Virus record (IMG/VR): IMGVR_UViG_3300008050_000097
Length of the DNA: 43,501 nt
Origin: a virus
Reading direction: 5' to 3' (one strand)
In this document: one piece after another, positions 7,936 through 8,738 of the stretch
How the letters are laid out: every line of letters starts with the position of its first letter
How positions within the stretch are numbered: position 1 is the stretch's first letter
Made by a program: the position numbers and the translations under genes
Notes under the pieces: generated by a model
Databases searched by the model: none
What the model was told of the DNA's origin: nothing
What the model saw: only the letters and a program-made list of their open reading frames with translations

Positions 7936-8195
7936 ATGGACGACCATAAGAAGGAAGCTGCACGGGGCTATTGGGATGACCCTGTCTATCGTGAATCTTC
8001 TAAGGAAAAGGCTGCTGCTCGGAAGCGTGCAAGGAAGCGCTTGAAGGAAACAGATCGAAGGCTTGAACATGACGATGACTCCTGACTTTGCACTCTTAAT
8101 TTATCTGTGGATTGGAATTTTTTAACGCTGGTATTGGCGCCGGCCTTGCTGCCCAGGGCCCCCGACCACACCGACATCAAGCGATAGGAGGCCCC

Positions 8196-8558
8196 ATGGG
8201 CCTGTTCTCTTGGGACTGCCGCGGCTGCGGCCATCCCCTGCTCCACAACATGGGAGCCACCAACGACATCAACCACTGGATGAACGACGCCATCGTCACC
8301 AACCCGGACGGCTCCCGCATCGAGGGCGTCTACGACGGCTACGGCCGCCTCGACGGCGTCGACTGCGACATGGACTCCATCGACTGGGACAACCGGCGCG
8401 CCGGCAACCCCTGCGCCTGGCACCGCGCGTGCTGGGAGATCGCTGGGGAACCCGATGAGTACGTTCCGTCGGTCAGCTCTGATGACCAGGGGCACTTCTT
8501 CGAGGAGGGCGCGCACGACATGGCAGACCCCAGACTGCAATACCGGGAGAAGTCTTGA
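8196..8558 (+). CDS. hypothetical protein encoded in high-GC island
   Basis: ATG preceded by strong RBS TAGGAGG; codons overwhelmingly G/C-ending unlike neighbours. Confidence 0.4.
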   Translation: MGLFSWDCRGCGHPLLHNMGATNDINHWMNDAIVTNPDGSRIEGVYDGYGRLDGVDCDMDSIDWDNRRAGNPCAWHRACWEIAGEPDEYVPSVSSDDQGHFFEEGAHDMADPRLQYREKS

Positions 8559-8738
8559 GCGGCTTCCGAAACATGGGGGACCTCTCGGACCTCACCAGCG
8601 TGGGCGATGTACGAGATCGACCGCCTCCGTGCAGCGTTGGATGAGGCACTTTCTGATGGGTTGCTTTGGAAAAGTGAACTATCGTCAACACAGGATGAGT
8701 TATTTTCAGTGCTGATGGAGCGAAGAGGAGAATAATTT

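Follow-up and report, generated by a model that had tools for sequence, protein, structure and literature searches.

An island of about 0.5 kb in the genome of a large uncultured phage was very probably acquired in a recent recombinational horizontal transfer from another phage, one with a GC content of 62 to 67%. The island lies in a stretch of 43,501 nt (IMG/VR record IMGVR_UViG_3300008050_000097), the whole of which we refer to as the window. We propose that high-GC phage DNA recombined into a tRNA-rich phage of ~48% GC, most likely by co-infection or with a prophage, on the assumption that donor and recipient shared a host cell. Within a single cell, the donor DNA, be it a phage genome or a prophage, would have been joined to the recipient's by illegitimate or micro-homology recombination. 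The island carries one complete gene with its own Shine-Dalgarno sequence; on either side are remnants of the donor's neighbouring genes, ~10 codons from the end of the upstream one and the first few of the downstream one. As no promoter or terminator belonging to the island was detected, the island is presumably transcribed by read-through in the recipient's co-directional gene array. The transfer would predate the split of the three sampled strains, and on the scale of sequence change it is recent, since the donor composition is kept at third positions and no drift from G/C to A/T is visible. The product would be a 120-aa accessory protein to which a host-directed role can be ascribed with low confidence.

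A preliminary description of this DNA had claimed an abruptly GC-rich island at 8130-8600, and the sliding-window GC profile shows this island to be real, with slightly wider limits of 8125–8648. In 200-nt windows, GC content is 0.66–0.685 across 8200–8600 and 0.41–0.53 on either side, with values of 0.47–0.53 at 7900–8200 and of 0.46–0.47 by 8600–8900. In 300-nt windows, the region lies 2.6–3.5 SD over the window mean of 0.498 ± 0.052. The profile is thus far from uniform, and its edges are sharp: in 30-nt steps, GC content rises from 0.23–0.40 before 8124 to 0.70–0.80 at the left edge (~8125), which is directly preceded by an AT-rich stretch of 0.23 GC, and it drops to 0.40 from 8650 at the right edge (~8648). 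Steps inside the island range from 0.53 to 0.83, compared with ~0.47 in the backbone. Edges placed in this way give a length of ~525 nt. The claim that codons in the island end in G or C, unlike those around it, also held up. The 120-aa ORF has a GC content of 0.653 and a GC3 of 0.884, whereas GC3 is 0.440 ± 0.059, with a maximum of 0.575, in 32 neighbouring genes (z = 7.6; gene calls taken from a near-identical contig). As GC1 (0.62) and GC2 (0.455) are within the backbone range, the excess is purely one of GC3 and represents a third-position signal of mutational bias rather than an amino-acid effect. Composition that deviates sharply, at third positions as well as overall, between sharp edges is the mark of a horizontally acquired island.

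The closest relatives of the island are found in contigs that match it in composition. Nucleotide identity to the window is 91.6% over 381 nt in contig L025 (flank GC, 0.66), 87% over 433 nt in L004/L005 (0.62), 83.7% in L026/L027 (0.64–0.66) and 80.3% in L001 (0.67). The similarity of these contigs to the window is limited to 8156–8582 and ends at the island borders; elsewhere in the 43.5 kb, only tRNA genes are similar. Gene GC minus flank GC is −0.03 to +0.05 at 13 other loci of the family (flank GC, 0.52–0.69) and +0.17 here. Only 4 substitutions in ~430 nt are private to the window lineage in a comparison with four high-GC relatives, and their balance between GC→AT (2) and AT→GC (2) indicates that there has been no amelioration. 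The window gene is itself a mosaic, its centre (the loop) resembling L025 and its 3' end resembling L004, and the GC-rich segments at 8125–8155 and 8583–8648 match no sampled relative; hence, the actual donor is an unsampled member of the clade of the high-GC relatives.

Recent acquisition from a high-GC donor, as first suggested from the island's composition, is therefore supported by relatives in contigs of 0.62–0.67 GC, by gene stubs at the edges, by the lack of amelioration and by the confined similarity. The further suggestion that this donor was of actinobacterial type has weak hints in its favour, namely a family member with 44% identity in Gordonia otitidis and a DUF932 gene in L004 with mostly actinophage matches (26–29% identity, in a database strongly biased to actinophages), but the label is unproven, and a phage rather than a bacterium appears to have been the donor. 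Matches of the RecA and DUF932 proteins of the donor-type contigs are distant and confounded by the database bias, and a megablast search of L001 and L004 against 50,697 phage records gave nothing useful.

We infer an insertion and do not see it as an indel, because scans of viral and metagenome contigs, anchored on the major vault protein (MVP) gene and on a flanking 113-aa gene, turned up no related genome in which the site is empty. Exact lookup of the island protein also found nothing. The 113-aa gene is nearly an ORFan, with a single other cluster that comes from the same phage, and only near-identical strains, all island-bearing, were recovered at the island site. One intermediate relative of the backbone, L023, is syntenic (MVP 73% identical, flanking genes 56–64%, GC 0.474), but this 4.1-kb contig stops ~270 nt short of the island site.

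The features of the island and of other GC-rich regions of the window are listed in Table 1. The 120-aa ORF noted at 8196-8558 is present and intact in all strains, and the ribosome binding site reported for it, GATAGGAGG, is there and is kept in the closest relatives. This motif or TAGGAGG also precedes the ATG in L004, L005, L025 and L026, and the spacers of the closest relatives are 5–6 nt long. The spacer of the island gene is thus about 2 nt shorter, and expression in the new genome is not assured. Conservation of M1 and G2 at 95–98% across 222 family members supports the ATG start; a longer, 148-aa ORF starting at TTG and several antisense ORFs were dismissed as by-products of high GC. 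Values of dN/dS of 0.27–0.51 among the five closest sequences indicate that the gene is under purifying selection. The ribosome binding site and start codon lie inside a 6-bp palindrome (AGGCCC-CAT-GGGCCT, 8189-8203), the pairing of which is retained in L004 through G-U wobble (AGGTCC...GGGCCT). This palindrome could be a translational hairpin or a mere by-product of a Shine-Dalgarno sequence followed by Met-Gly-Leu codons.

Table 1. Features of the high-GC island and of other GC-rich regions of the window
Feature	Position	Strand	Basis or remarks
Whole high-GC island, ~525 nt; very probably foreign DNA in a co-directional gene array of ~0.47 GC	8125..8648		GC steps
3' stub of the donor lineage's upstream gene, with no start or N-terminal part; ends with TAG at 8185–8187	8125..8187	+	Frame, alignment
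Shine-Dalgarno AGGAGG, 4-nt spacer to ATG; overlaps the stop codon of the upstream stub	8187..8192	+	Sequence
Intact 120-aa gene, from ATG (8196) to TGA (8558)	8196..8558	+	ORF, homologs, conservation, dN/dS, AlphaFold2 model
Donor-derived 3' flank	8559..8644	+	Alignment; 8559–8582 homologous to L004/L005
23-codon 5' stub (MGDLSDL..., then stop) of the donor's downstream gene	8573–8644	+	Diverges after MGD; early stop
42-aa ORF (MYEIDRLRAALDEALSDGLLW...) across the right GC junction; GC-rich 5' half, AT-rich 3' half	8607..8735	+	ORF list, GC steps
ORFs of the second island: a 207-aa Ala-rich ORF and two small ORFs	39764-40387, 40391-40576, 40512-40748	-	
ORFs of the third patch: small, with overlapping ends and without family matches	37242-37583, 37568-37846	-	ORFs

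Both ends of the island cut into genes of the donor lineage. The upstream frame reads ...APDHTDIKR before its stop in the window, compared with ...APDHTDIER at the end of an 84-aa upstream gene in L004, and nucleotide homology to L004/L005 starts at 8156 by both blastn and alignment. Downstream, homology runs 24 nt past the stop of the 120-aa gene, through ATG GGG GAC of the donor's next gene, and then breaks. The downstream product of L005 starts with LSDFRNMGDPP..., and frame 2 of the window reads GFRNMGDLSD... before a stop. The 42-aa ORF across the right junction is of uncertain status and may be a chimeric gene made by the insertion, a remnant ORF or no gene at all. It has no Pfam or PHROG match, and its best likeness, to an ORF directly downstream of the family gene in L011, is non-significant (30% over 50 aa; E 0.57).

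The window is part of an uncultured phage of ~175–179 kb and ~0.47–0.50 GC. It contains 15 tRNA genes and encodes an ATP-dependent DNA ligase, an Rnl-type RNA ligase, phosphoesterases, RlaP, NT5C, GIY-YIG and AAA proteins and an 880-aa MVP homolog. The same sequence is present at 99.93% identity on a 74-kb Logan contig and a 175.7-kb ENA contig, and an MVP identical to that of the window is encoded on a 179-kb contig. A megablast search with a 7.3-kb region against 50,697 deposited phage genomes found no nucleotide relative. Gene content, matching contigs and this lack of a deposited relative identify the backbone as that of a large uncultured phage of ~0.47–0.50 GC. Both island junctions are identical in L006 (SRR5467136) and L022 (ERZ27249139), and the left junction is also found in L007. 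The three island-bearing assemblies differ within the island by one SNP, 8398 G>C (R68P), which falls within a low-confidence variable loop of the protein model. Identical junctions in three assemblies rule out mis-assembly and show that the island is older than the strain split.

Several other properties of the recipient were observed. The MVP gene (4716-7358, + strand) matches Pfam MVP_shoulder (9.7e-22), Vault_3 and Band_7, and its product is ~47% identical to Myxococcota MVPs in a search that returned 2133 matches. The GC content of this gene (0.53) is near that of the backbone, and MVP is therefore an older resident than the island. MVPs of phages were first described in a 2023 preprint, from different, human-gut phages (10.1101/2023.11.10.566534). 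A second phage-like contig of ~177 kb, L024, encodes an MVP that is 45% identical but in a non-syntenic context, and it was set aside in the search for an empty site. The 15 tRNA genes form an array with small ORFs between them (10266-20357, + strand), and many of the tRNAs read A-ending or rare codons (Gln-UUG, Val-UAC, Thr-UGU, Ile-UAU, Ala-UGC, Pro-UGG and Arg-CCU). One may speculate that such a set would fit a phage with a GC content below that of its host. Three of the window's tRNAs are 79–85% identical to tRNAs of L001, a phage contig of 67% GC. The family gene is located ~1.7 kb upstream of the tRNA array in the window, while in L001 it sits between tRNA genes (gene at 10001–10354, region 9157-10420), with tRNAs for Ile, Ala, Val and Thr upstream and a tRNA-Met that overlaps its 3' end. 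Regions of tRNA genes may be preferred landing sites for such cassettes.

The window contains further GC-rich patches. A second island, at 39764-40750, is larger and more GC-rich (up to 0.745 GC in 200-nt windows) and gave no Pfam or PHROG match, no relative in a pattern scan of IMG/VR and no blastn match in the phage collection. A third patch, at 37300-38000, has 0.60–0.64 GC, and there is a milder peak at 29.2–29.5 kb. Homologs of these other GC islands were sought and none was found. Taken together, the patches suggest that the phage took up high-GC DNA repeatedly. Between the two distal islands is a 201-aa ORF (38017-38622, - strand) with an HEVAH metalloprotease-like motif and a C-terminal CxxC pair, which matches several uncharacterised PHROGs (best, 1.9e-12).

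A homology search with the 120-aa protein, as had been advised, uncovered a large unnamed family, nearly all of it borne by phages or metagenomes. A word-indexed search yielded 86 homologs with E-values of 4e-67 to 1e-20, and an exhaustive profile search yielded 980 clusters at 50% identity, 667 of them with E ≤ 1e-10. Twelve IMG/VR viral contigs, several of which are 105–200 kb long, bear a member. The contexts are phage-like, with dense co-directional small genes; in L001, neighbours include RecA, HD, peptide deformylase and 10 tRNAs, and in L004 they include GIY-YIG and DUF932. Only 1 of 185,579 species-representative bacterial and archaeal genomes, that of Gordonia otitidis, bears the family, in surroundings that are not demonstrably prophage. 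Comparison of independent loci revealed no recurrent neighbouring gene family; hence, the gene travels alone.

The family domain is ~105–120 aa long and begins at residue 1 with MG[FL]FS. Many members are extended C-terminally, with no Pfam domain in the extensions, while the window member is a stand-alone protein of 120 aa. The protein carries the family motifs MG[FL]FS-x2-C-x2-C-G-H, NxWM, YDGYG, [WY]H[RKQ]ACW and DQGxFF, the fourth in the form WHRACW, together with the tetrad C8/C11/H76/C79. Conservation was measured in alignments of 40 and of 222 sequences: in the latter, the tetrad is 99–100% conserved, and W28, M29, G44, Y46-D-G-Y-G50, Q98-G99 and F101 are 95–100% conserved. The protein and its relatives have no match in Pfam, PHROGs, NCBIfam or PADLOC; for the window protein, Pfam gave nothing at E ≤ 0.1, and the PADLOC anti-phage defence models gave nothing at E ≤ 1 for it or for three relatives. 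A tblastn search of 50,697 phage genomes found nothing. AlphaFold2, run with the 40-sequence alignment, predicts a small, mostly beta structure (pLDDT 90.6, pTM 0.85) with no fold match in the PDB. The best structural matches by Foldseek against BFVD, A0A6B9WNJ7 of Escherichia phage nepoznato (186 aa; E 8e-3, TM [query] 0.54) and A0A1V0SEN6 of Hokovirus HKV1 (270 aa; E 5e-3, TM [query] 0.44), are marginal, with 20–25% identity, and both of these proteins are longer and uncharacterised.

The conservation pattern and the model suggest that the protein probably binds one zinc ion through C8, C11, H76 and C79. The four conserved Cys/His positions form two putative knuckles, and the modelled secondary structure is compatible with a zinc finger. 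A CxxC knuckle of zinc-ribbon or treble-clef-like type and the HxxC motif, modelled where strand 73–76 meets helix 77–82, would staple the small beta-rich domain together. Some relatives have sub-threshold matches to Prok-RING_1 and zinc ribbons. One of them, P0070, matches Prok-RING_1 (PF14446) with 24.1 bits over 17 residues, below the gathering threshold of 29.1 bits, and this match spans exactly the (W/Y)HxxCW motif. Prok-RING_1, Zn_ribbon_8 (PF09723), zinc-ribbon and treble-clef fingers share with the family an N-terminal CxxC knuckle and (W/Y)HxxCW at a helix start; the window protein resembles them in these ligand motifs only and is below Pfam thresholds. As to the cellular role of the protein, movement of the gene singly between unrelated phages, without a conserved partner, leads us to guess, very tentatively, at a host-directed factor that binds or modulates its target, of the takeover or counter-defence kind.

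Other origins of the island have to be weighed against transfer from a phage. The gene could be native, with a high GC content imposed by amino-acid composition or by selection acting on this gene (e.g., optimisation of its codons for strong expression). An intact ORF with a good ribosome binding site that is fixed in all three strains would be compatible with this, but the deviation is restricted to GC3, with normal GC1 and GC2; homologs in genomes of 0.52–0.58 GC have a GC content of 0.52–0.56, so that the protein does not demand high GC; and the stub or non-coding sequence on either side of the ORF shares its high GC content and has homology to high-GC contigs. A native gene is thus very improbable, and this reading has already been largely refuted. 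A metagenomic mis-assembly, joining reads of a high-GC organism to a phage contig of intermediate GC content, might be suspected from the short contig L007, which ends inside the island at window position 8192. We regard such an artifact as next to impossible, since both junctions are present, at 99.93% identity, in the window and in the 74-kb Logan and 175.7-kb ENA contigs, two products of different samples and assemblers, and L007 itself spans the left junction.

The segment could also be genuine foreign DNA with a different source, such as the chromosome, a prophage or another mobile element of a high-GC bacterial host (e.g., an actinobacterium or myxobacterium), rather than a co-infecting lytic phage. 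The presence of a family member in Gordonia otitidis at 0.63 GC points in this direction, as do the closeness of the phage's MVP gene to Myxococcota genes, the 15 tRNAs, many of them for A-ending codons, which would fit a phage less GC-rich than the host, and two other islands of up to 0.745 GC without phage relatives. Against this, the family is found in a single species genome of the 185,579 searched, at just 44% identity and in a neighbourhood that is not demonstrably a prophage, and all close relatives are in phage-like contigs, several of them in IMG/VR; a bacterial source is therefore unlikely. Single movement of the gene among unrelated phages might instead reflect a self-mobile element (e.g., a homing-endonuclease cassette, a miniature transposon or an intron-like insert), and GIY-YIG genes do occur upstream of the family gene, at 1.2 kb in L004 and 4.2 kb in the window. 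However, these two GIY-YIG genes encode unrelated proteins, no signature of a nuclease, transposase or integrase was seen in the 120-aa protein, and the island has neither terminal direct or inverted repeats nor any flanking repeat of >13 nt. Its edges cut donor genes and fit no defined element boundary. Such ragged, gene-truncating ends largely refute self-mobility, to which we attach very little probability.

Recombinational transfer from a phage has clear parallels. Phage mosaicism and accessory insertions of the 'moron' type are known from the comparative genomics of lambdoid phages and actinobacteriophages. The island resembles these cases in that one additional gene with a deviant base composition is flanked by backbone genes, similarity to other phages halts abruptly at the cassette edges, and the cassette would have been gained by non-homologous or micro-homologous recombination. 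A classical moron has a promoter and a terminator of its own. A simple and weak consensus search found no sigma-70-like promoter at the island, and the sole terminator-like match in this region was the palindrome over the ribosome binding site and start codon. The island also differs from a classical moron in the unusually large GC gap between donor and recipient, ~15–20 points, and in the truncated donor genes left on both sides. Hence, the island is an ordinary event of phage mosaicism, documented unusually cleanly, and is neither a classical moron nor a self-mobile element.

The value of this locus is as a clean, datable case of mosaicism, with sharp edges, stubs on two sides, no amelioration and donor-type relatives in hand. 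Transfer across a GC gap of this size implies that phages of different composition share a cell and, hence, provides an indirect clue to the host. The family, with its ~1000 clusters at 50% identity, is wholly unannotated and combines invariant CCHC residues with a confidently predicted fold for which there is no solved analogue; it would be a sensible choice for structural and functional studies of phage 'dark matter'. A bolder and rather doubtful proposal is that the family is a zinc-dependent phage effector with a new fold, passed between phages as a one-gene cassette, and that the vault-encoding phage of ~175 kb shares the high-GC host of the donors (Actinomycetota or Myxococcota). If this were true, the effector would be an enzyme, a counter-defence factor or a host-takeover factor, the phage's own tRNA set would bridge the codon-usage gap in a high-GC host, and the un-ameliorated high-GC islands would be a running record of the genes captured in that host.
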